Assembly: GCF_016026235.1 (NCBI RefSeq)
Contig: NZ_CP065613.1
Direction: 5' to 3' (one strand)
DNA length: 64,000 bases
Origin: Escherichia coli
Lineage (GTDB): Bacteria > Pseudomonadota > Gammaproteobacteria > Enterobacterales > Enterobacteriaceae
Part shown: one piece after another, positions 47,035-58,047 of the stretch
Position numbering within the stretch: position 1 is the stretch's first letter
Layout of the letters: the number at the start of each line of letters is the position of its first letter
Translations under genes and position numbers: made by a program
The notes under the pieces: model-generated
What the model was told of the DNA's origin: nothing
Databases searched by the model: none
Seen by the model: the letters and a program-made list of their open reading frames with translations, nothing else

Positions 47035-47092
47035 CTTTTTGGCGGAGGGCGTTGCGCTTCTCCGCCCAACCTATTTTTACGCGGCGGTGCCA

Positions 47093-49255
47093 ATGGACGT
47101 TTCTTACCTGCTCGACAGCCTTAATGACAAACAGCGCGAAGCGGTGGCCGCGCCACGCAGCAACCTTCTGGTGCTGGCGGGCGCGGGCAGTGGTAAGACG
47201 CGCGTACTGGTGCATCGTATCGCCTGGCTGATGAGCGTGGAAAACTGCTCGCCATACTCGATTATGGCTGTGACGTTTACCAACAAAGCGGCGGCGGAGA
47301 TGCGTCATCGTATCGGGCAACTGATGGGCACCAGCCAGGGCGGCATGTGGGTCGGCACCTTCCACGGGCTGGCGCACCGTTTGCTGCGTGCGCACCATAT
47401 GGACGCCAATCTACCGCAGGATTTCCAGATCCTCGACAGTGAAGACCAGCTACGCCTGCTTAAGCGTCTGATCAAAGCCATGAACCTCGACGAGAAGCAG
47501 TGGCCGCCGCGCCAGGCAATGTGGTACATCAACAGCCAGAAAGATGAAGGCCTGCGTCCGCATCATATTCAAAGCTACGGTAATCCGGTGGAGCAGACCT
47601 GGCAGAAGGTGTATCAGGCGTATCAGGAAGCGTGTGACCGCGCGGGCCTGGTGGACTTCGCCGAGCTGCTGCTGCGCGCTCACGAACTGTGGCTTAACAA
47701 GCCGCATATCCTACAACACTACCGCGAACGTTTTACCAATATCCTGGTGGACGAATTCCAGGATACCAACAACATTCAGTACGCGTGGATCCGCCTGCTG
47801 GCGGGCGACACCGGCAAAGTGATGATCGTCGGTGATGACGACCAGTCAATCTACGGCTGGCGTGGGGCGCAGGTGGAGAATATTCAGCGTTTCCTTAATG
47901 ATTTCCCCGGTGCCGAAACTATTCGTCTGGAGCAAAACTACCGCTCTACCAGCAATATTCTGAGCGCCGCTAACGCCCTGATTGAAAACAACAACGGGCG
48001 TCTGGGTAAAAAACTGTGGACCGATGGCGCGGACGGTGAGCCTATTTCCCTCTATTGCGCTTTTAACGAACTCGATGAAGCGCGTTTTGTGGTTAACCGC
48101 ATCAAAACCTGGCAGGACAACGGCGGGGCGCTTGCCGAGTGCGCCATTCTCTACCGCAGTAACGCCCAGTCGCGTGTGCTGGAAGAAGCACTGTTGCAGG
48201 CGAGTATGCCGTACCGTATTTACGGCGGGATGCGCTTCTTCGAACGCCAGGAAATCAAAGATGCGCTCTCGTATCTGCGCCTGATTGCCAACCGTAACGA
48301 CGACGCGGCCTTTGAGCGTGTGGTGAATACGCCAACGCGGGGTATTGGTGACCGGACGCTGGACGTGGTACGTCAGACATCGCGCGATCGCCAGTTAACA
48401 CTCTGGCAGGCATGTCGTGAACTGTTGCAGGAAAAAGCCCTCGCCGGACGTGCTGCCAGCGCCTTACAGCGGTTTATGGAACTGATCGACGCCTTAGCGC
48501 AGGAAACTGCCGATATGCCGCTGCATGTACAGACTGACCGGGTAATTAAAGACTCCGGCCTGCGTACCATGTACGAGCAGGAGAAGGGCGAAAAAGGTCA
48601 GACGCGTATCGAAAACTTAGAGGAACTGGTGACGGCAACGCGCCAGTTCAGCTACAACGAAGAAGACGAAGATTTAATGCCGCTGCAGGCGTTCCTATCC
48701 CATGCGGCGCTGGAAGCAGGCGAAGGGCAGGCGGATACCTGGCAGGATGCGGTACAACTGATGACCATGCACTCGGCGAAAGGTCTGGAGTTCCCGCAGG
48801 TGTTTATCGTCGGTATGGAAGAGGGCATGTTCCCAAGCCAGATGTCGCTGGATGAAGGCGGGCGTCTGGAAGAAGAACGCCGTCTGGCCTACGTTGGCGT
48901 AACCCGCGCGATGCAGAAACTGACGCTGACCTACGCGGAAACTCGCCGTCTGTATGGCAAAGAGGTTTACCATCGCCCGTCGCGCTTTATTGGCGAGCTG
49001 CCGGAAGAGTGTGTGGAAGAGGTGCGCCTGCGCGCCACGGTAAGCCGCCCGGTCAGCCATCAGCGGATGGGTACGCCGATGGTCGAGAACGACAGCGGCT
49101 ACAAGCTCGGCCAGCGTGTACGCCACGCTAAGTTTGGTGAAGGCACCATCGTCAATATGGAAGTCAGCGGTGAACATAGCCGTTTGCAGGTGGCATTCCA
49201 GGGCCAGGGAATCAAATGGCTGGTGGCAGCTTACGCCCGGCTGGAGTCGGTGTAA
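47093..49255 (+). CDS. uvrD: DNA helicase II (UvrD)
   Basis: ATG at 47093 inside track ORF 46904..49255; [38 protein letters not shown], 720 aa. Confidence 0.95.
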   Translation: MDVSYLLDSLNDKQREAVAAPRSNLLVLAGAGSGKTRVLVHRIAWLMSVENCSPYSIMAVTFTNKAAAEMRHRIGQLMGTSQGGMWVGTFHGLAHRLLRAHHMDANLPQDFQILDSEDQLRLLKRLIKAMNLDEKQWPPRQAMWYINSQKDEGLRPHHIQSYGNPVEQTWQKVYQAYQEACDRAGLVDFAELLLRAHELWLNKPHILQHYRERFTNILVDEFQDTNNIQYAWIRLLAGDTGKVMIVGDDDQSIYGWRGAQVENIQRFLNDFPGAETIRLEQNYRSTSNILSAANALIENNNGRLGKKLWTDGADGEPISLYCAFNELDEARFVVNRIKTWQDNGGALAECAILYRSNAQSRVLEEALLQASMPYRIYGGMRFFERQEIKDALSYLRLIANRNDDAAFERVVNTPTRGIGDRTLDVVRQTSRDRQLTLWQACRELLQEKALAGRAASALQRFMELIDALAQETADMPLHVQTDRVIKDSGLRTMYEQEKGEKGQTRIENLEELVTATRQFSYNEEDEDLMPLQAFLSHAALEAGEGQADTWQDAVQLMTMHSAKGLEFPQVFIVGMEEGMFPSQMSLDEGGRLEEERRLAYVGVTRAMQKLTLTYAETRRLYGKEVYHRPSRFIGELPEECVEEVRLRATVSRPVSHQRMGTPMVENDSGYKLGQRVRHAKFGEGTIVNMEVSGEHSRLQVAFQGQGIKWLVAAYARLESV

Positions 49256-49257
49256 CG

Positions 49258-49372
49258 TTGCCGGATGCGGTGCTGCGCACCTTATTTGGCCTAAAAAATC
49301 ATTCATATTCAATAAATTGCAACGTCATGTATGCCGGATAGGGCGTTTACGCCGCATCCGGCATCTGCGCCA
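49258..49372. repeat. BIME-like element (two opposed REP units around a linker) after uvrD
   Basis: GCCGGATGCGGTGCTGCGCACCTTATTTGGC ... ATTCAATAAATTGCA ... TGCCGGATAGGGCGTTTACGCCGCATCCGGCA. Confidence 0.7.
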
Positions 49373-49401
49373 TCTTCAGTATCTGACACAAAACTATCGT
49401 T

Positions 49402-49833
49402 TTAACCTTTCCGCTCGACGGAAATCATGGTGACAAAAGGATAGCGTTGCCACGGGATTGCCCCGCCTTTCATATACATATGTGAAATCGTACCATCAAG
49501 ATAAAGCAGCTGCTCAACGTTCAGTTTCGCTTTGGCATAACAGGCAAAATCATAAAAATTTGTCGCCTGCTGGCTCAACAAAAACACGGCATTCCCATGT
49601 TTATTAATCCCAACACCGTTACGAATTTTACGTGAGGCGACGTTGGGATGAATACGCGGATTAATTACACCGTTTTCCATCAACATTGGCCCTGACTGCA
49701 CCGCAAACTGAATATCTTTACTGGCTTTAAAAGCATCTAGACGAACGATGCCGACTTTATCTCCCGCGACATAAAACACGCCGCCAGGACGGATAAAGAA
49801 ATTCCCTTCACCTGAAGCGAGATTTAACGCCAC
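49402..49833 (-). pseudogene. yigE: yigE C-terminal fragment (DUF2233), separated from its 5' part by IS4
   Basis: Track ORF continues the reading frame of 51266..51604 across the IS4 target duplication (...QQKV | ALNLASGEG...). Confidence 0.8.
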
Positions 49834-49842
49834 CTTCTGCTG

Positions 49843-51268
49843 TAATGCCGATCAGTTAAGGATCAGTTGACCGATCCAGTGGCTGTGTAAGAATCCGGAA
49901 ACGCTCACTTGTTTCCGGATTTTTTTATGCACATTGGACAGGCTCTTGATCTGGTATCCCGTTACGATTCTCTGCGTAACCCACTGACTTCTCTGGGGGA
50001 TTACCTCGACCCCGAACTCATCTCTCGTTGCCTTGCCGAATCAGGTACTGTAACGCTACGCAAGCGCCGTCTTCCCCTCGAAATGATGGTCTGGTGTATT
50101 GTTGGCATGGCGCTTGAGCGTAAAGAACCTCTTCACCAGATTGTGAATCGCCTGGACATCATGCTGCCGGGCAATCGCCCCTTCGTTGCCCCCAGTGCCG
50201 TTATTCAGGCCCGCCAGCGCCTGGGAAGTGAGGCTGTCCGCCGCGTGTTCACGAAAACAGCGCAGCTCTGGCATAACGCCACGCCGCATCCGCACTGGTG
50301 CGGCCTGACCCTGCTGGCCATCGATGGTGTGTTCTGGCGCACACCGGATACACCAGAGAACGATGCAGCCTTCCCCCGCCAGACACATGCCGGGAACCCG
50401 GCGCTCTACCCGCAGGTCAAAATGGTCTGCCAGATGGAACTGACCAGCCATCTGCTGACGGCTGCAGCCTTCGGCACGATGAAGAACAGCGAAAATGAGC
50501 TTGCTGAGCAACTTATAGAACAAACCGGCGATAACACTCTGACGTTAATGGATAAAGGTTATTACTCACTGGGACTGTTAAATGCCTGGAGCCTGGCGGG
50601 AGAACACCGCCACTGGATGATACCTCTCAGAAAGGGAGCGCAATATGAAGAGCTCAGAAAACTGGGTAAAGGCGATCATCTGGTGAAGCTGAAAACCAGC
50701 CCGCAGGCACGAAAAAAGTGGCCGGGACTGGGAAATGAAGTGACAGCCCGCCTGCTGACCGTGACGCGCAAAGGAAAAGTCTGCCATCTGCTGACGTCGA
50801 TGACGGACGCCATGCGCTTCCCCGGAGGAGAAATGGCGGATCTGTACAGTCATCGCTGGGAAATCGAACTGGGATACAGGGAGATAAAACAGACGATGCA
50901 ACTGAGCAGGCTGACGCTGAGAAGTAAAAAGCCGGAGCTTGTGGAGCAAGAGCTGTGGGGTGTCTTACTGGCTTATAATCTGGTGAGATATCAGATGATT
51001 AAAATGGCGGAACATCTGAAAGGTTACTGGCCGAATCAACTGAGTTTCTCAGAATCATGCGGAATGGTGATGAGAATGCTGATGACATTGCAGGGCGCTT
51101 CACCGGGACGTATACCGGAGCTGATGCGCGATCTTGCAAGTATGGGACAACTTGTGAAATTACCGACGAGAAGGGGAAGGGCCTTCCCGAGAGTGGTAAA
51201 GGAGAGGCCCTGGAAATACCCCACAGCCCCGAAAAAGAGCCAGTCAGTTGCTTAACTGACTGGCATTA
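49843..51268 (+). mobile_element. IS4 insertion sequence (1426 bp)
   Basis: Terminal inverted repeats TAATGCCGATCAGTTAAG / CTTAACTGACTGGCATTA; perfect 12-bp direct repeat CACCTTCTGCTG at 49831-49842 and 51269-51280. Confidence 0.93.
49927..51255 (+). CDS. insG: IS4 transposase
   Basis: [34 protein letters not shown]... (442 aa, DDE type) inside track ORF 49909..51255. Confidence 0.93.
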
Positions 51269-51604
51269 CACCTTCTGCTGACCGTTTTCGATGTACAAAC
51301 CGAGCGGCGCATAGCTTTCATCATAGATGCCGCCGTTCATCGCCATCTGCACCTGACCCTGACTATTCATATCCGCCAGCAGAGCATGTAACGTTCCCCA
51401 CGCTTCGCCATTAGCTTTTTGCCAGTACATTTTCACCCGCTCTGTTTGAGGATTAACGGTATACGCCTGTACGGTCAGCGTCGGATCTGAGAGTGCGCAA
51501 TCATCAGCGGCAACAGCAAACAAGGGAAGTAAGGTGAGGGTGAGAAAAATCTGTTTGAGATTCAAGGTGATCATTCCTTTACCAATGAGTAGCCGATGCG
51601 CCAT
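51266..51604 (-). pseudogene. yigE: yigE N-terminal fragment (signal peptide + first ~110 codons)
   Basis: Track ORF MAHRLLIGKGMITLNLKQIFLTLTLLPLFAVAADDCALS...; stops two codons into the IS4 end. Confidence 0.8.
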
Positions 51605-51973
51605 TATAGGTCCTGGATGTTGGATTTTTTTATCCTGTTAGCGACCTTGACGAGTACCAAAAAGCGCGAAGTTCAACTATTGTTCTGTGGTGTTCTGTTG
51701 CGTGTTGACGGCAAAATTTTGCTGGCGTAACATGCGCGCACGATCACTCTAAGAGGACATTCGCCTTGGACACACCCAGTAGATACTGGCTCACTATCCT
51801 GTCATCCAGGATCAACTCCTAAGGCTATCCCTTTTTGCTGATAGCCTTAGCGGTTGTCAGCGACCTCAATTTTTCCCGTCGCGCTGAGTCAGGCTGTTTA
51901 ATGGTCTGAAACCCAATTTGTTTCTGTGTGCCCACCGAACTGTCCGATATTTTAAGCATTGGGAGTCCCGGTC

Positions 51974-52924
51974 ATGCTGAGCGCATTTCAACTGGAAAAT
52001 AACCGACTGACCCGGCTGGAAGTCGAAGAGTCACAACCCCTTGTAAATGCAGTATGGATTGATCTTGTCGAACCGGACGACGACGAGCGACTGCGCGTAC
52101 AATCTGAACTTGGCCAGAGCCTGGCAACCCGCCCGGAACTGGAAGACATCGAAGCATCGGCACGTTTCTTTGAAGACGACGACGGCCTGCATATTCACTC
52201 CTTCTTCTTCTTTGAAGATGCGGAAGATCACGCCGGTAACTCCACTGTGGCATTTACCATCCGTGATGGTCGTCTGTTTACTCTGCGTGAGCGTGAACTG
52301 CCCGCTTTTCGTCTGTATCGTATGCGTGCCCGTAGCCAGTCGATGGTAGACGGTAACGCCTACGAGCTGCTGCTGGATCTGTTCGAAACCAAAATCGAAC
52401 AGTTGGCAGATGAAATTGAAAATATCTATAGCGACCTGGAGCAGTTGAGCCGGGTGATTATGGAAGGGCATCAGGGCGATGAGTACGACGAGGCGCTCTC
52501 CACTCTGGCGGAACTGGAAGATATCGGCTGGAAAGTTCGCCTGTGTCTGATGGATACCCAGCGCGCGCTCAACTTCCTGGTGCGTAAAGCGCGTTTACCG
52601 GGTGGGCAACTGGAGCAGGCGCGTGAAATCCTGCGAGATATCGAATCCCTGCTGCCGCATAACGAATCCCTGTTCCAGAAGGTGAACTTCCTGATGCAGG
52701 CGGCGATGGGTTTTATCAACATCGAGCAGAACCGCATCATCAAAATCTTCTCGGTGGTATCCGTGGTATTCCTGCCGCCGACGCTCGTTGCTTCCAGCTA
52801 TGGGATGAACTTTGAGTTTATGCCAGAACTGAAGTGGAGTTTCGGCTACCCAGGCGCGATTATCTTTATGATCCTCGCGGGCCTGGCACCGTATCTGTAC
52901 TTTAAGCGCAAGAACTGGCTGTAA
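51974..52924 (+). CDS. corA: Mg2+/Co2+ transporter CorA
   Basis: ATG at 51974 inside track ORF 51959..52924; [20 protein letters not shown]...; GMN motif and C-terminal TM pair; 316 aa. Confidence 0.95.
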
Positions 52925-52931
52925 TATGAGT

Positions 52932-52968
52932 GCCGGATAAAGCTATTTTTTTATCCGGCTTATTTCTA
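52932..52968. terminator. bidirectional hairpin terminator (corA / downstream cassette)
   Basis: GCCGGATAAAGCTATTTTTTTATCCGGC followed by T-rich tract; sits between corA stop and the stop of the 159-aa minus-strand ORF. Confidence 0.7.
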
Positions 52969-52977
52969 AAAATTGTC

Positions 52978-53457
52978 TTATTTAAAGTCATGCGGATTGA
53001 AAACTCGCTCTATTTTATTTTCTTGTGTTAATTGATACTCAGTAAAATCGTTAATACCAATATGAGTGTTACGATAAGGGTATTCATTAATAACCATTAA
53101 GTAATTTTTCACGATGCAATTATCATTGCTCTTAATTGTCGGGAAACAGTAGAGATCTTCATACGGCCCTTCGATATATTTTTTATAGTCAGTGAAGCCA
53201 TTACCGATATCAATGACATACCAGGTATGCCAACTACCTTCTGGTAGGGGATGTTGATTTTTAATTTCATTCTGATGCTTCAGATACCAATTTATTTTAT
53301 CGCTGTCAGTCCATGGCAGATGATCAACGACCAGAAAGACTGAATTGCCAGCATCAGAGTATGTATACAAAATCTGTACAGGACGCAATGTCCATAAATT
53401 ATAGATGCAGCATAGAAGAAATAAACATAATATAATTTTCTGGAGTTTGCTTTTCAT
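52978..53457 (-). CDS. hypothetical signal-anchored/exported protein (159 aa), second gene of corA-adjacent cassette
   Basis: Track ORF; N-terminal hydrophobic segment MKSKLQKIILCLFLLCCIYNLW; start overlaps upstream ORF stop (ATGA at 53454-53457); AT-rich codon usage. Confidence 0.7.
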   Translation of the reverse strand: MKSKLQKIILCLFLLCCIYNLWTLRPVQILYTYSDAGNSVFLVVDHLPWTDSDKINWYLKHQNEIKNQHPLPEGSWHTWYVIDIGNGFTDYKKYIEGPYEDLYCFPTIKSNDNCIVKNYLMVINEYPYRNTHIGINDFTEYQLTQENKIERVFNPHDFK

Positions 53458-54308
53458 AGATAATTTTCGATTCTTTCGATAGTGTTAAAATTGGTGAAAA
53501 AAGGTTTGAAAGCAAAGTCTTTATGCCGTTGTAAAAAGAACCATATGCGAAAAAATCTATATTTGCTGTAAGTCTTGTTTTTGATATCAGTTACATCAAG
53601 ACCGAAGTGGTCCTGTGCTACAAAATGAATTGTTGCACTCCATCCTATAGCGTATTTTTGAAAACTTAAAAGAGATATTTTTTGAGCTGAAATATCATGA
53701 ACACTGATTCCTAAGCCATTAAAACTGTCCTCGAAGTCATTAAATTTATTTAGTCTTGATGAAAGTAATTTGGTTTTAATGCTTTGCAGGATAAGAGGTT
53801 GGTATCCTGTCGAGGGAGTTGAATTAATGCCATTTTCGATACATTCTTTGATTATTCGTATTGGACTATTATAACCATATTTATTTATTTTTTCATGAAA
53901 AGATAAATTTAATTGTTGGCTATGAAAATTGCTGCCATTTCCATATCTAAAATGTTCAATCAGATCTTCGATAAGTGTTTTATATTGTCCAAAAAAGGAA
54001 AGCATTTTTGCTAGTTCTTTCATTTCTGCAAATAAAATATCAGTGCATTCACGTTGTGATATTTTTGTTCCGGAACTTGAGGCACTAAAAGCAACATTAA
54101 TAGAACCTGGGCCAGGGAAATGGTATTTAATAAGTCTGTAAGGATCAACTTTTGCTGAGATATCGCTTAGGCCGAGTGAGAGAAAGTCTTGTTCTACCAT
54201 ATCACCATATTGCATATCATCAGCAGAAAAATCATCGAATAAACTAATAGTTTCGAAAAGTGTACAGGGAATATTAATTGGCGGAAGTAATATGTTATTC
54301 ATTTGCAT
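53454..54308 (-). CDS. hypothetical protein (284 aa), first gene of corA-adjacent cassette
   Basis: Track ORF MQMNNILLPPINIPCTLFETISLFDDFSADDMQYGDMVEQDF...; no TM segment or catalytic motif I can assign by eye; AT-rich. Confidence 0.7.
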   Translation of the reverse strand: MQMNNILLPPINIPCTLFETISLFDDFSADDMQYGDMVEQDFLSLGLSDISAKVDPYRLIKYHFPGPGSINVAFSASSSGTKISQRECTDILFAEMKELAKMLSFFGQYKTLIEDLIEHFRYGNGSNFHSQQLNLSFHEKINKYGYNSPIRIIKECIENGINSTPSTGYQPLILQSIKTKLLSSRLNKFNDFEDSFNGLGISVHDISAQKISLLSFQKYAIGWSATIHFVAQDHFGLDVTDIKNKTYSKYRFFRIWFFLQRHKDFAFKPFFTNFNTIERIENYL

Positions 54309-54498
54309 TTGCCTTGGTTATATTTAAGCTCAATATCAATTCGAGAACAAATGCTAGGGTAAAAAAATATTTAAAAAAGAAGTACACTTCACATTTTTTC
54401 ATTACATCTCTGAAGAGAACCTCGTTAATGATTGGTCTTGCTCATTGTTAATAACAAAATGTTGAATTTACCGATTAGGAAACTTTTTCCTACGCGGA

Positions 54499-54635
54499 TT
54501 GCCTCCAGTTCTGGCATGAACTTTGAGTTTATGCCAGAACTGAAGTGGGGCTTCGGCTACCCTGGCGCGATTATCTTTATGATCCTCGCGGGCCTGACAC
54601 CGTATCTGTACTTTAAGCGTAAGAACTGGCTGTAA
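54499..54635 (+). pseudogene. diverged duplicate of the corA 3' end (last ~45 codons + stop)
   Basis: ~137 bp alignable by eye to 52788-52924 with roughly ten mismatches; encodes ...[40 protein letters not shown]; track ORF 54432..54635 extends it to an upstream ATG. Confidence 0.85.
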
Positions 54636-54659
54636 CTATACGATGTCGCTGTGAGTAAG

Positions 54660-55046
54660 TTAGTGTGCTGACAGCGACATTTTAGCCGAGGGAATCGCAG
54701 ATAACATAATTGTTGTGAATAATATCCATGCCACGTTGAGTTGGACGCTTAATGACTCACATCTCACCCCTTCAATTGCTGCAGAGATAATAGAAAAAAG
54801 TGTCAAACCCAATGAAATCAATACAAAGTAGATTGCCTTACATCCAGTATCTCTTATTCTTTTTGCTCCAATATTGATATTTACATAGGTATTATTAATA
54901 ACCAGAATAAAACTCAAAGCCAGGTTGATATCATTCAAAGTTATTAATATTGACCATGATGTTAATGTATAGATTATGAACTGAAAGCGTGATAAACGCT
55001 CAAGCCTGGATGGGTAGAATATATTTCTGATGGATGATTTGAACAT
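54660..55046 (-). CDS. hypothetical small inner-membrane protein (128 aa); yigF position by synteny
   Basis: Track ORF with at least three hydrophobic segments; AT-rich; lies between corA region and rarD where K-12 carries yigF/yigG. Identity not verified. Confidence 0.6.
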   Translation of the reverse strand: MFKSSIRNIFYPSRLERLSRFQFIIYTLTSWSILITLNDINLALSFILVINNTYVNINIGAKRIRDTGCKAIYFVLISLGLTLFSIISAAIEGVRCESLSVQLNVAWILFTTIMLSAIPSAKMSLSAH

Positions 55047-55245
55047 TTTTACATTGTTTTATATATATAATTGTTTTGAATATATATTACCTGAATTATG
55101 TGGTTTGCATATATATATGCAATATAGCAGTCTTTGCATTGATAACTATACAGTAGTAATTTAGAGTGTGTAAGTTTTTATTGATGGGGTATATTTTAAT
55201 TAAATATAATTGAAATGTATTTTTATTCTATAAACAATATCTTGG

Positions 55246-55560
55246 GTGAATGGATTCTATATGGGAAATGGTAACTTTTGGCAGTTGTTCTTGGGTAAAG
55301 AACCTTACAGCAAAAAATCTTATTTTGTTAAGGCATGGTTATTGTGGTGGGCTATTACCATCCTTGTTCTATTTATTTTAAGCCTGACTACGACATTAAA
55401 TTTAAGAAGTATAGGTATAGGGTTAAGTTTTGGGTTTTGTCAAATTCTTGGTAGATATACGATGTCTCTAGGATGGAGTAAGTACTGGGGAGTTTTGGGG
55501 GTATTTCCTGTAACAAATATTGTTCTTTTTCTTATCTTAATTTTTTTCAAAAAAAGATAA
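55246..55560 (+). CDS. hypothetical small membrane protein (104 aa)
   Basis: Track ORF with two clear hydrophobic helices (AWLLWWAITILVLFILSL; GVLGVFPVTNIVLFLILIFF); AT-rich; followed by hairpin GGGTAGGC...GCCTACCC. Confidence 0.5.
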   Translation: MNGFYMGNGNFWQLFLGKEPYSKKSYFVKAWLLWWAITILVLFILSLTTTLNLRSIGIGLSFGFCQILGRYTMSLGWSKYWGVLGVFPVTNIVLFLILIFFKKR

Positions 55561-55606
55561 ATAAGTCAGTGGGTAGGCTCTTTAAACGGCCTACCCATGT
55601 TAATTC

Positions 55607-56494
55607 TTAACTTTTTCTACGCTGCGTATAAATCGCATCCATCACAAAAATTGCCAGCGCCACCCAAATAAAGGCGAAAGTCACCATCTTATCGGCACCC
55701 GGTTTTTCACCATAAAACGTCACAGCCAGCAGGAACATCAGCGTCGGGCCAATGTACTGGAAAAAGCCTAACGTTGAGAGACGCAAGCGCGTGGCAGCGG
55801 CGGTAAAACACAACAGCGGTACGGTAGTGACAATACCGGCGGCGATCAGCAGTAAATTCAGCGACATCGGGTTTTGCCCCATATGGCTGGTTGAGCTGTC
55901 GGCAATAGCAAACAGGTAAATTGCCGCCACGGGCAGCAGCCACATGGTTTCGATTAACATGCCGGTTTGCGCTTCAACGGCAATCTTCTTGCGTACCAGA
56001 CCGTAGAAGGCAAAACTAAATGCTAGCCCCAGCGCGATAATAGGTAGCGAACCAAAAGTCCACAGCTGGACCAACACGCCACATATCGCCAGAATCACCG
56101 CCAGCCATTGCATCCGGCGGAATCGCTCGCCGAGGAAAATCATCCCCAGCACAATGTTCACCAGCGGGTTAATAAAGTAACCAAGGCTCGCTTCCAGCAT
56201 ATGGTGATTGTTCACCGCCCAGATAAACAGTAGCCAGTTGCCACCAATCAGCACGGCAGAGACTGCCAGCATAAAAATTTTCTGTGGCGTCTGAATCAGC
56301 GTTTTTAAATAGGACCACTGGCGGCAAATGCTCATCAGCACCACCATAAAGAAAAACGACCAGATCACGCGATGCGTCAGGATTTCATCGGCGGGCACGT
56401 AGTAAATCAACTTGAAGTACGCTGGCGCTATACCCCAAATAAAATAAGCGGCAAGAGCGAGTAATACGCCCTGCCGCGTTTGTTTTGCATCCAT
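55607..56494 (-). CDS. rarD: DMT-family transporter RarD
   Basis: 295-aa ORF MDAKQTRQGVLLALAAYFIWGIAPAYFKL... Confidence 0.92.
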   Translation of the reverse strand: MDAKQTRQGVLLALAAYFIWGIAPAYFKLIYYVPADEILTHRVIWSFFFMVVLMSICRQWSYLKTLIQTPQKIFMLAVSAVLIGGNWLLFIWAVNNHHMLEASLGYFINPLVNIVLGMIFLGERFRRMQWLAVILAICGVLVQLWTFGSLPIIALGLAFSFAFYGLVRKKIAVEAQTGMLIETMWLLPVAAIYLFAIADSSTSHMGQNPMSLNLLLIAAGIVTTVPLLCFTAAATRLRLSTLGFFQYIGPTLMFLLAVTFYGEKPGADKMVTFAFIWVALAIFVMDAIYTQRRKS

Positions 56495-56545
56495 CGGGAA
56501 TACTCATTTTTAATTGGTAACAGCAGTTTACCTGCTTTTACGTTA

Positions 56546-57013
56546 TCAACCTACCATATAGGTGGCGGTGGCACTGGCAATATAAAGCTGTTCTTCATTG
56601 TGTAATTCAACGCGGGCGACGGCGACTTTATTGCCTGCACGCAACAGACTACTGGTAGCAGTAAAACGCTCGCCCCTGCCTGGGCGCAGATAATCAACGC
56701 GAAGATCAATGGTCCCCATCCGCGATAGCCGCTGGCGTAGTTCATCTTCACTGATGGTTTCGTGGCGGGTTAAGGTACTTCCCACGCACACCAGACCTGC
56801 GGCGACATCCAGCGCCGACGCAATGACCCCGCCGTGCAAAATGCTTTGCGCCCAGTTACCCACCATCATTGGCTGATTTTTAAAGGCCAGCTGTGCGAAC
56901 TCTTTTTCGTAACGCTCCAGCTCCATCCCTAACGCGCGGTTAAATGGCATGTGATAAACAAACATCTCACCCACTAATTTCAGGGCTTGTTCAGCGGTCA
57001 GTACGGCAGACAT
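56546..57013 (-). CDS. yigI: hotdog-fold thioesterase YigI
   Basis: Track ORF 56546..57031; start placed at [24 protein letters not shown] (155 aa). Confidence 0.85.
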
Positions 57014-57177
57014 ATCATCCTTACACTTCATTGGTTAATGAAATGTTGATTTTATGCTTCTTTGTTGTTGGTTTCTACTTTAGGAAGGGATAACTAACGG
57101 CTATGGAGTTAAGTATGTAAAATAGCCCGCAGAAAAATATTCACCTTATCAATAATTCGTTACGGAGAACACGACCG

Positions 57178-58047
57178 ATGCGGACTCTGCAGGGCTGGTT
57201 GTTGCCGGTGTTTATGTTGCCTATGGCAGTATATGCACAAGAGGCAACGGTGAAAGAGGTGCATGACGCGCCAGCGGTGCGTGGCAGTATTATCGCCAAT
57301 ATGCTGCAGGAGCATGACAATCCGTTCACGCTCTATCCTTATGACACCAACTACCTCATCTACACACAAACCAGCGATCTGAATAAAGAAGCGATTGCCA
57401 GTTACGACTGGGCGGAAAATGCGCGTAAGGATGAAGTAAAGTTTCAGTTGAGCCTGGCATTTCCGCTGTGGCGTGGGATTTTAGGCCCGAACTCGGTGTT
57501 GGGTGCGTCTTATACGCAAAAATCCTGGTGGCAACTGTCCAATAGCGAAGAGTCTTCACCGTTTCGTGAAACCAACTACGAACCGCAATTGTTTCTCGGT
57601 TTTGCCACCGATTACCGTTTTGCAGGCTGGACGTTGCGCGATGTAGAGATGGGGTATAACCACGACTCTAACGGGCGTTCAGACCCGACCTCCCGCAGCT
57701 GGAACCGCCTTTATACTCGCCTGATGGCAGAAAACGGTAACTGGCTGGTAGAAGTGAAGCCGTGGTATGTGGTGGGTAATACTGACGATAACCCGGATAT
57801 CACCAAATATATGGGTTACTACCAGCTTAAAATCGGCTATCACCTCGGTGATGCGGTGTTGAGTGCGAAAGGACAGTACAACTGGAACACCGGCTACGGC
57901 GGCGCGGAGTTAGGCTTAAGTTACCCGATCACCAAACATGTGCGCCTTTATACTCAGGTTTACAGCGGCTATGGCGAATCGCTCATCGACTATAACTTCA
58001 ACCAGACCCGTGTCGGTGTGGGGGTTATGCTAAACGATTTGTTTTGA
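57178..58047 (+). CDS. pldA: outer-membrane phospholipase A
   Basis: 289-aa ORF MRTLQGWLLPVFMLPMAVYAQEATVKEVHDAPAVRGSIIANMLQ... with signal peptide. Confidence 0.95.
   Translation: MRTLQGWLLPVFMLPMAVYAQEATVKEVHDAPAVRGSIIANMLQEHDNPFTLYPYDTNYLIYTQTSDLNKEAIASYDWAENARKDEVKFQLSLAFPLWRGILGPNSVLGASYTQKSWWQLSNSEESSPFRETNYEPQLFLGFATDYRFAGWTLRDVEMGYNHDSNGRSDPTSRSWNRLYTRLMAENGNWLVEVKPWYVVGNTDDNPDITKYMGYYQLKIGYHLGDAVLSAKGQYNWNTGYGGAELGLSYPITKHVRLYTQVYSGYGESLIDYNFNQTRVGVGVMLNDLF

Follow-up and report, generated by a model that had tools for sequence, protein, structure and literature searches.

Gene content and boundaries of the corA-rarD gap

The stretch of Escherichia coli DNA analyzed here (64,000 nucleotides of contig NZ_CP065613.1; hereafter the window) carries, in the gap between corA and rarD, an AT-rich segment at 52925-54488 with two overlapping minus-strand genes, followed by a second, partial copy of the corA 3' end. 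We refer to the two-gene segment as the cassette and to the partial gene copy as corA'. The two genes are members of the DUF3289 and DUF943 families. Taking the evidence together, we consider it likely that they form an orphan type VI secretion system (T6SS) effector-immunity pair, that the cassette is one allele of the corA-rarD gap rather than a mobile element, and that corA' was left behind by one old insertion-duplication. The features of the locus are collected in Table 1.

An earlier reading of this DNA, made without database searches (the sequence-only reading), had corA ending at 52924, which is indeed where its intact open reading frame (ORF) stops; in a near-identical genome the Prokaryotic Genome Annotation Pipeline (PGAP) annotates corA as WP_000947159.1. 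A repeat search returned a single long direct repeat of 147 nt, pairing 52778-52924 with 54489-54635 at 91% identity and a spacing of 1,711 nt, so that corA' starts 1,564 bp 3' of corA. The sequence-only reading had described a recurrence of about 137 bp at 54499-54635. That repeat is real (137 nt at 93.4% identity by blastn, well above the chance expectation), but at full length it spans 147 nt and begins at 54489. The amino acid changes it listed for the copy, SFGYP to GFGYP and LAP to LTP, are seen in the translations together with a third, SSYG to SSSG. PGAP labels corA' as a pseudogene, "CorA family... incomplete; missing N-terminus". To the right of 54489, 15/20 positions match corA in register; just to the left of it the match is 6/20, the random level, making this boundary a sharp one. 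A decayed, longer corA duplication within 54309-54488 was considered and rejected: in-register identity there is random, and the Smith-Waterman score was reached by 171 of 500 shuffles.

The left edge of the cassette is of a different character. A terminator-like hairpin adjoins the corA stop and lies downstream of the DUF943 stop, and this continuity of corA stop, hairpin, and DUF943 gene end is common to the E. coli strains CFT073 and MS1718 and, in diverged form, to Salmonella enterica subsp. diarizonae. The left edge is a natural continuity and not a joint. Neither terminal inverted repeats at 52925 and 54488 nor a target duplication besides corA' came up in the repeat search; lacking inverted repeats and a transposase, the cassette does not class with transposons or insertion sequences (IS). 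The 1,564 bp between the two corA ends are AT-rich, as had been noted, with a GC content of 0.32 against 0.53 for corA and 0.51 for rarD. The yigF-yigG segment that fills the gap in K-12 has a GC content of 0.35, and the segment that follows corA' in the window, designated X, has 0.32. AT-richness is common to everything found in the corA-rarD gap and does not mark the cassette as more foreign than the K-12 content.

The first gene of the cassette encodes a 284-amino-acid (aa) protein that matches Pfam DUF3289 (PF11692) at 1.7e-83 over model positions 2-270 of 272 (residues 12-280) and NCBIfam TIGR03034, the "YPO3983 family", at 436.6 bits against a cutoff of 156.45. In a fold test, it agrees with a solved DUF3289 domain. 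The 159-aa product of the second gene matches Pfam DUF943 (PF06092) at 1.7e-26 over model positions 1-150 of 151, and PGAP names it "DUF943 family protein". The stop codon of the DUF3289 gene overlaps the start codon of the DUF943 gene by 4 nt (ATGA), and the latter lies directly downstream. The sequence-only reading had recognized the two overlapping minus-strand ORFs; its verdict that they could not be placed is superseded by these family matches.

Table 1. Features of the window between corA and the X segment
Feature	Position	Strand	Basis
corA	51974-52924	+	ORF, translation, PGAP, repeat search
Hairpin and T-run, likely two-way terminator; natural left end of the cassette allele	52932-52959		Terminator-like site, 11 pairs
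DUF943 gene, 159 aa	52978-53457	-	PF06092, PGAP
DUF3289/YPO3983-family gene, 284-aa ORF (PGAP start: 282 aa)	53454-54308	-	PF11692, TIGR03034
AT-rich region upstream of the effector gene, ending at the proposed illegitimate joint 54488/54489	54309-54488		CFT073 homology to ~54472; no corA similarity
corA', repeat copy 2, last 48 codons and stop, pseudogene fragment	54489-54635	+	Repeat search; PGAP pseudogene
Perfected hairpin in corA', 17-bp stem, 3-nt loop	54506-54542		Folding energy
X segment, alternative allele of the yigF-yigG space, background outside the cassette	54636-55606		blastn, genome count

Alleles of the gap in E. coli and its relatives

The cassette is present in 2,631 of 5,426 complete E. 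coli genomes (48%). About 1,708 of these have the cassette together with corA', and about 920, of the CFT073 type, have it without corA' (Table 2). The genome comparison that the sequence-only reading proposed therefore returns both empty and occupied sites, with K-12 among the empty ones. An ancient core feature, present in all genomes including K-12 at a core-like GC content, is contradicted by the absence of the cassette from K-12 and by its GC content of 0.32. Carriers include O157:H7, O104:H4, CFT073, and BL21. The occupied genomes examined all hold one and the same two-gene unit of 1.56 kb, which comes without an integrase or other element genes. PGAP annotations of the locus, and even of corA', already exist for thousands of genomes, and this is an ordinary variable locus of a known kind.

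Table 2. Arrangements of the corA-rarD gap among 5,426 complete E. coli genomes
Allele	Order of segments	Genomes	Examples
A	corA, yigF-yigG, rarD	Within the ~2,740 remaining genomes, not counted separately	K-12
C_X	corA, cassette, corA', X, rarD	1,409	Window
C_A	corA, cassette, corA', yigF-yigG, rarD	299	BL21, MS1718, E275a
B	corA, cassette, yigG 5' remnant, rarD	~920 (by subtraction)	CFT073
D	corA, X, rarD	~55 (by subtraction)	CV261
Unnamed	corA, short X remnant, rarD		SCU-124

In the window, corA' is followed not by yigF, which had been expected as the usual neighbor of corA, but by X, a segment found in 1,464 of the 5,426 genomes and without a blastn match to K-12 yigF-yigG. X contains a membrane-like ORF of 128 aa (54660-55046, minus strand) that PGAP leaves unannotated and that is a distant homolog of YigG (29% identity, E 4e-5), as well as a hypothetical ORF of 99-104 aa (55246-55560, plus strand). 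In BL21 (NZ_CP010816.1 3863686-3864980), the cassette and corA' are followed instead by yigF and a yigG pseudogene. The empty site of CV261, where corA is followed directly by X, and the occupied site with corA, cassette, corA', and X differ by exactly one repeat unit, and repeat-free occupied sites also exist. A difference of one unit is what an element bounded by att repeats would give, and homologous recombination between the repeats yields the same pattern.

The cassette alleles have diverged considerably. Between the window and CFT073, identity is 85% for the effectors and 93% for the immunity proteins, and the synonymous divergence (dS) is 0.44 for the DUF3289 gene and 0.22 for the DUF943 gene, against 0.10 for corA and 0.19 for rarD. 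The two cassette alleles are older than the divergence of the surrounding core. The ratio of nonsynonymous to synonymous divergence (dN/dS) between the same alleles is 0.17 for both genes, indicating that both have been kept functional by purifying selection. A mosaic cassette in MS1718 (locus L013 2211-3553) combines a CFT073-like immunity gene (97.6%) with a window-like effector gene (98.6%); recombination has taken place inside the pair, and the mosaic would provide a test of cross-immunity between the two alleles. A large CFT073-type sublineage encodes a truncated effector of 234 aa next to an intact gene for a 165-aa DUF943 protein (L022 5001-5705; cluster P0039, 1,301 member sequences), leaving the immunity gene without a full-length toxin.

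Outside E. coli, the nearest effectors are those of S. enterica subsp. houtenae, arizonae, diarizonae, and salamae, at 60-66% identity in a protein search. In S. diarizonae, the pair lies between corA and rarD without corA', with 76% nucleotide identity to the window over 51900-54239 (corA through most of the effector gene), and a S. houtenae contig has the same corA-rarD slot occupied, also without corA'. Since the pair sits in the same slot in Salmonella, the cassette is a long-standing resident of two genera and not a newcomer. In the type strain of subsp. diarizonae, CCUG 30040T, the DUF3289 gene is frameshifted and the DUF943 gene is intact (locus L009 5001-5848). A recent foreign donor, which the sequence-only reading had hoped to trace, was rejected: a scan of genome contigs and the protein search returned nothing nearer than Salmonella, and at 60-66% identity no recent donor is visible. 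Trabulsiella and Huaxiibacter contain arrays of DUF3289/DUF943 pairs together with orphan immunity genes and effector fragments, an arrangement typical of polymorphic toxin loci. Two matches of 99% labelled as uncultured Alistipes and Clostridium (GTDB representatives, metagenome bins) are most likely mis-binned E. coli contigs; the Alistipes-labelled contig spans yigE through rarD, and the 2.2-kb Clostridium-labelled contig carries the effector gene, corA', X, and the rarD end.

A plasmid vehicle for the whole cassette was also rejected. On IncHI plasmids, PLSDB contains no more than 98 bp of the cassette, attached to a piece of corA, and its two full-length "plasmid" matches are chromosome-sized records of 1.0 and 4.8 Mb. 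The IncHI piece (R27, NC_002305.1 1225-2923, and pHCM1) is 1,699 bp of chromosomal DNA that is 99.0% identical to window positions 51324-53022. It consists of the 5' part of yigE, ysgD, corA, the terminator, and the last 45 nt of the DUF943 gene (14 codons and stop), followed by IS1, and it occurs in 64 plasmid-sized PLSDB records from Salmonella, Escherichia, Enterobacter, and others. The source of this piece was a cassette-bearing E. coli, and with it the plasmids have 1.7 kb of homology to the locus.

Predicted function of the gene pair

Published work on other genera suggests a role for both families. In Yersinia pseudotuberculosis, the PAAR-DUF3289 effector T6EC1 is toxic in the periplasm of E. 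coli, causing cells to round, and is neutralized by its DUF943 neighbor T6IC1; a DUF3289 member also matches PaeM by Foldseek (PMC11148199). In Aeromonas jandaei, the T6SS secretes an orphan DUF3289 protein, which makes up a bona fide effector-immunity pair with the product of the downstream gene (PMC12135965). By analogy, the DUF3289 protein of the window is predicted to be a periplasm-acting antibacterial effector that would be delivered by a T6SS, with cell-wall synthesis as its probable target, and the DUF943 protein is predicted to be a co-translated, membrane-anchored immunity protein that guards the producer and its kin. The 4-nt gene overlap and the N-terminal anchor of the DUF943 protein fit an effector-immunity reading: its translation has a hydrophobic stretch at about residues 8-22, and the remainder is predicted to be periplasmic. 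An alignment of the DUF3289 family has invariant H204, D205, Q232, D233, D241, R251, and R254, which are catalytic candidates only. An anti-phage defense system was rejected, as PADLOC gave no match for any of four ORFs. Literature searches found no paper on YPO3983, TIGR03034, PF11692, or PF06092, and none on the E. coli corA-rarD cassette locus.

Several observations weigh against this assignment. The 284-aa protein has no PAAR, VgrG, or other recognizable delivery domain, as DUF3289 fills residues 12-280. The pair is an orphan, neither fused nor linked to a T6SS gene in the window, and no VgrG, Hcp, PAAR, or adaptor gene lies between 44000 and 64000. Orphan T6SS effectors are known, so absent linkage does not exclude function (A. 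jandaei, PMC12135965). The nearest complete genome, FDAARGOS_943, is 99.9% identical to the window over 47062-58000 apart from an IS4 insertion and contains a T6SS-1 cluster at aspV (NZ_CP065615.1 2654191-2688173), which speaks for the assignment. In that cluster, however, an IS21 insertion interrupts the sheath gene tssC and IS600 truncates one vgrG, so that delivery may be impossible in this strain, leaving only the immunity role. IS elements look expanded in the FDAARGOS_943 lineage, whose T6SS is probably inactive. Finally, the T6SS dependence presumed for E. coli DUF3289 members is drawn from other genera. Beside T6SS-1 in FDAARGOS_943, the Flag-2 lateral flagellar cluster is also interrupted, by ISEc60.

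These observations also feed an alternative in which the pair works without a T6SS in E. coli and would be kept as a defensive immunity locus whose toxin either goes unused or acts as an addiction module that stabilizes the locus. The orphan position and the disrupted tssC of the nearest genome would be expected under this alternative, as would the truncated effector beside an intact immunity gene in the CFT073-type sublineage and the frameshifted effector of the S. diarizonae type strain. However, the effector of the window is full length and under purifying selection (dN/dS of 0.17), and the orphan DUF3289 pair of Aeromonas is T6SS-delivered (PMC12135965). The addiction variant meets a further difficulty in that the 284-aa protein, as read from its sequence, has no signal peptide and so could not reach its own periplasm as an addiction toxin. 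We regard a role independent of the T6SS as unlikely, while giving it some weight.

An orphan T6SS effector-immunity pair at this locus would provide a likely toxin and antidote function for two genes of "unknown function" in about half of E. coli strains. The diverged alleles, mosaics, and truncated-effector lineages offer a natural system for studying the upkeep and exchange of effector-immunity alleles. The resident pair of BL21 is of practical concern as well: BL21 has been the host of published toxicity and rescue tests of a DUF3289 effector, and its own pair, with a diverged immunity gene, is a caveat for DUF3289 toxicity assays in this strain.

Origin of corA' and comparison with known systems

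The left junction of corA' is identical in all eight copies compared (window, O157:H7, O145, O104:H4, D5, BL21, MS1718, and E275a). The first 20 bases of corA' are the same in the eight, with one copy differing at one base, and match corA at 15 of 20 positions. This shared edge reads cctacgc[g/c]gattgcctccag, with five mismatches to the window corA and four to any corA allele aligned. Since eight very different lineages share both the junction and the edge mismatches, a single event made the duplication. The remainder of corA' varies by lineage, in variants that also occur in functional corA, and its 3' end matches the downstream background. In MS1718, corA' is K-12-like and continues into yigF, and in O157:H7 its last 120-odd bases, on into X, match the corA end of CV261, an X-type strain that lacks the cassette, at every base. 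This match to the local background indicates that crossovers have taken place inside corA' since the event, with corA' serving as a homology arm, and such crossovers during spread explain why the same junction stands before two unrelated backgrounds, yigF-yigG and X.

We propose, as the simplest kind of account, that the incoming stretch would have reached from a point 147 bp ahead of the corA stop as far as the upstream region of the effector gene, and that it was joined by homologous recombination in corA and by one illegitimate joint at 54488/54489. The incoming DNA would have supplied a working corA end, and the resident end would have been displaced downstream as corA'. Homology-facilitated illegitimate recombination, single-crossover integration of a circularized 1,711-bp fragment, and tandem duplication with subsequent allelic replacement through corA' and rarD are three candidate routes; they would give the same product and are indistinguishable here. 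The arrangement would then have spread by ordinary homologous recombination, with crossovers within corA'. The sequence-only reading saw no integrase and left mobilization unexplained. No integrase lies between the repeats here or in annotated relatives, and because one illegitimate joint with RecA-type homologous recombination in corA would suffice to account for the structure, its absence needs no special explanation. The broader suggestion of an integrated element or acquired islet survives insofar as the cassette is accessory and exchanged by recombination (2,631 of 5,426 genomes); with no integrase, inverted repeats, or relevant phage match, it is not supported as regards an element.

Two features of the locus sit uneasily with this account. 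A simple model in which the resident corA end was displaced does not predict five mismatches within the first 20 bp of corA'. The edge mismatches (25%, with a wide error) may represent old decay at a repeat border beyond the reach of gene conversion, or donor sequence at a joint of chance similarity. Should a functional corA of some species read cctacgcggattgcc at the corA' edge, the edge would be donor-derived and the circular-intermediate route would be favored. In addition, the CFT073-type allele shares the cassette to about 54472, some 16 bp short of the corA' junction, and continues into a 5' piece of yigG with two deletions. As it carries this piece, the CFT073 arrangement came from an ancestor that had yigG as well as the cassette and that may or may not have had corA'; either of the two cassette arrangements may have come first.

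A remnant of a site-specific integrative element, either a prophage or an island, is very improbable as the source of this structure. Such an element would have entered the corA 3' end bearing a replacement gene end and since been reduced to two cargo genes. It would predict a direct repeat of a gene 3' end flanking AT-rich DNA, which is what is seen, and a 33-bp block identical in both copies holds a quasi-palindrome that possibly resembles a recombinase core site. However, this quasi-palindrome belongs to the native corA coding sequence, in the region of the GMN motif, and the left junction is the natural continuity from corA to terminator found in repeat-free alleles. About 920 E. coli genomes, as well as Salmonella subspecies, have the same slot occupied without a repeat, and none of the genomes examined has an integrase or element gene between the repeats. 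No relevant phage match was obtained; a prophage origin was rejected, as the three matching records in the phage collection are Salmonella sequences matched via corA or a misfiled houtenae genome contig.

Least credible of all is a function for corA' itself, as a 48-67-aa membrane peptide (the GMN motif and last transmembrane helix) modulating CorA pentamers or with the repeats as a selected device for reversible loss: the frame is open in all eight copies examined, with an in-frame TTG ORF of 67 aa, but an open frame over only 147 bp says little, lineage-differing changes (Y to S/D beside the GMN motif, S to G, A to T) fall at residues invariant in aligned functional corA, no promoter-like site lies upstream on the plus strand (the scan, with 11 sites against 13.1 expected from shuffles, is uninformative), and PGAP calls a pseudogene.

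The corA' of the window also contains a hairpin at 54506-54542, in which the quasi-palindrome of the corA GMN motif has been made perfect by C to T at 54509 and A to C at 54511. Its folding energy is -16 kcal/mol, compared to -7.3 for the corA copy and -10.3 for the O104:H4 corA'. The exact sequence occurs in one of the 5,426 genomes, FDAARGOS_943, and the hairpin was rejected as a conserved feature of corA', being private to the window lineage. The two changes look like a quasi-palindrome templated (template-switch) mutation in a pseudogene.

Returning to the single insertion-duplication, we offer one consequence tentatively, as a possibility that falls short of being likely. As both arms are homologous to corA, the corA/corA' pair could make the cassette movable by RecA alone to a position behind corA in any strain, whatever lies downstream, and the two direct repeats would permit its scarless loss. 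If true, this would amount to integrase-free shuttling of interbacterial weapons, in which a duplicated piece of a housekeeping gene acts as a portable right-hand homology arm, and the IncHI capture of yigE'-ysgD-corA-DUF943' would add a conjugative route for DNA homologous to the locus.

Upstream of corA, the window has an IS4 copy (1,426 bp, 49843-51268) in yigE, with a 12-bp target duplication, CACCTTCTGCTG. IS4 is present at this yigE site in 14 of the 5,426 complete E. coli genomes, and yigE is intact in FDAARGOS_943. CFT073, CV261, and MS1718 carry a gene of the "SAM hydrolase/SAM-dependent halogenase family" (SAM, S-adenosylmethionine) between uvrD and yigE; the gene is also present in SCU-124, in which yigE is unannotated, and is absent in K-12 and FDAARGOS_943.

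A comparison of the cassette products with described effector-immunity pairs shows both shared and divergent features. T6EC1 and T6IC1 of Yersinia have in common with the E. coli pair both Pfam families, the order of effector then immunity gene, and a membrane-anchored periplasmic immunity protein (PMC11148199). T6EC1 is a PAAR fusion encoded inside a T6SS operon, whereas the E. coli protein is a stand-alone 284 aa encoded far from T6SS genes. The A. jandaei pair resembles that of E. coli in its orphan location and differs in its immunity protein, a 95-aa three-helix protein (PMC12135965). A relationship to the colicin M family (colicin M, PaeM, and pectocin M1) is possible, with a published Foldseek match of a DUF3289 member to PaeM and cell rounding (PMC11148199). 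The DUF3289 protein has only 18-20% identity to the C-terminal domain of BtpeA of Bacteroides fragilis (PDB 9jdi), which is part of a larger effector. The immunity protein BtpiA is unrelated to DUF943 as far as compared here.

The arrangement of the locus also has parallels. The elements e14 and phage 21 integrate into icd and carry a duplicate gene end; as at the corA locus, the insert is flanked by a second, slightly diverged copy of a core gene's 3' end. Unlike the corA locus, where neither feature is seen, e14 and phage 21 have an integrase gene and undergo site-specific excision. The corA locus shows that what looks like a textbook island footprint, AT-rich DNA enclosed by a duplicated gene end, can come about without mobile-element machinery. 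At Rhs and contact-dependent inhibition (CDI) loci, with their displaced C-terminal fragments, and in the T6SS effector modules of Vibrio cholerae, which are displaced sequentially, incoming DNA recombines via a conserved sequence on one side, and the resident 3' end is moved downstream. Comparable processes are insertion-duplication and homology-facilitated illegitimate recombination. As at the corA locus, a leftover fragment there repeats part of the conserved sequence. The anchor in the Rhs, CDI, and V. cholerae systems is the core of the toxin gene, whereas here both the anchor and the displaced piece belong to the housekeeping gene corA.

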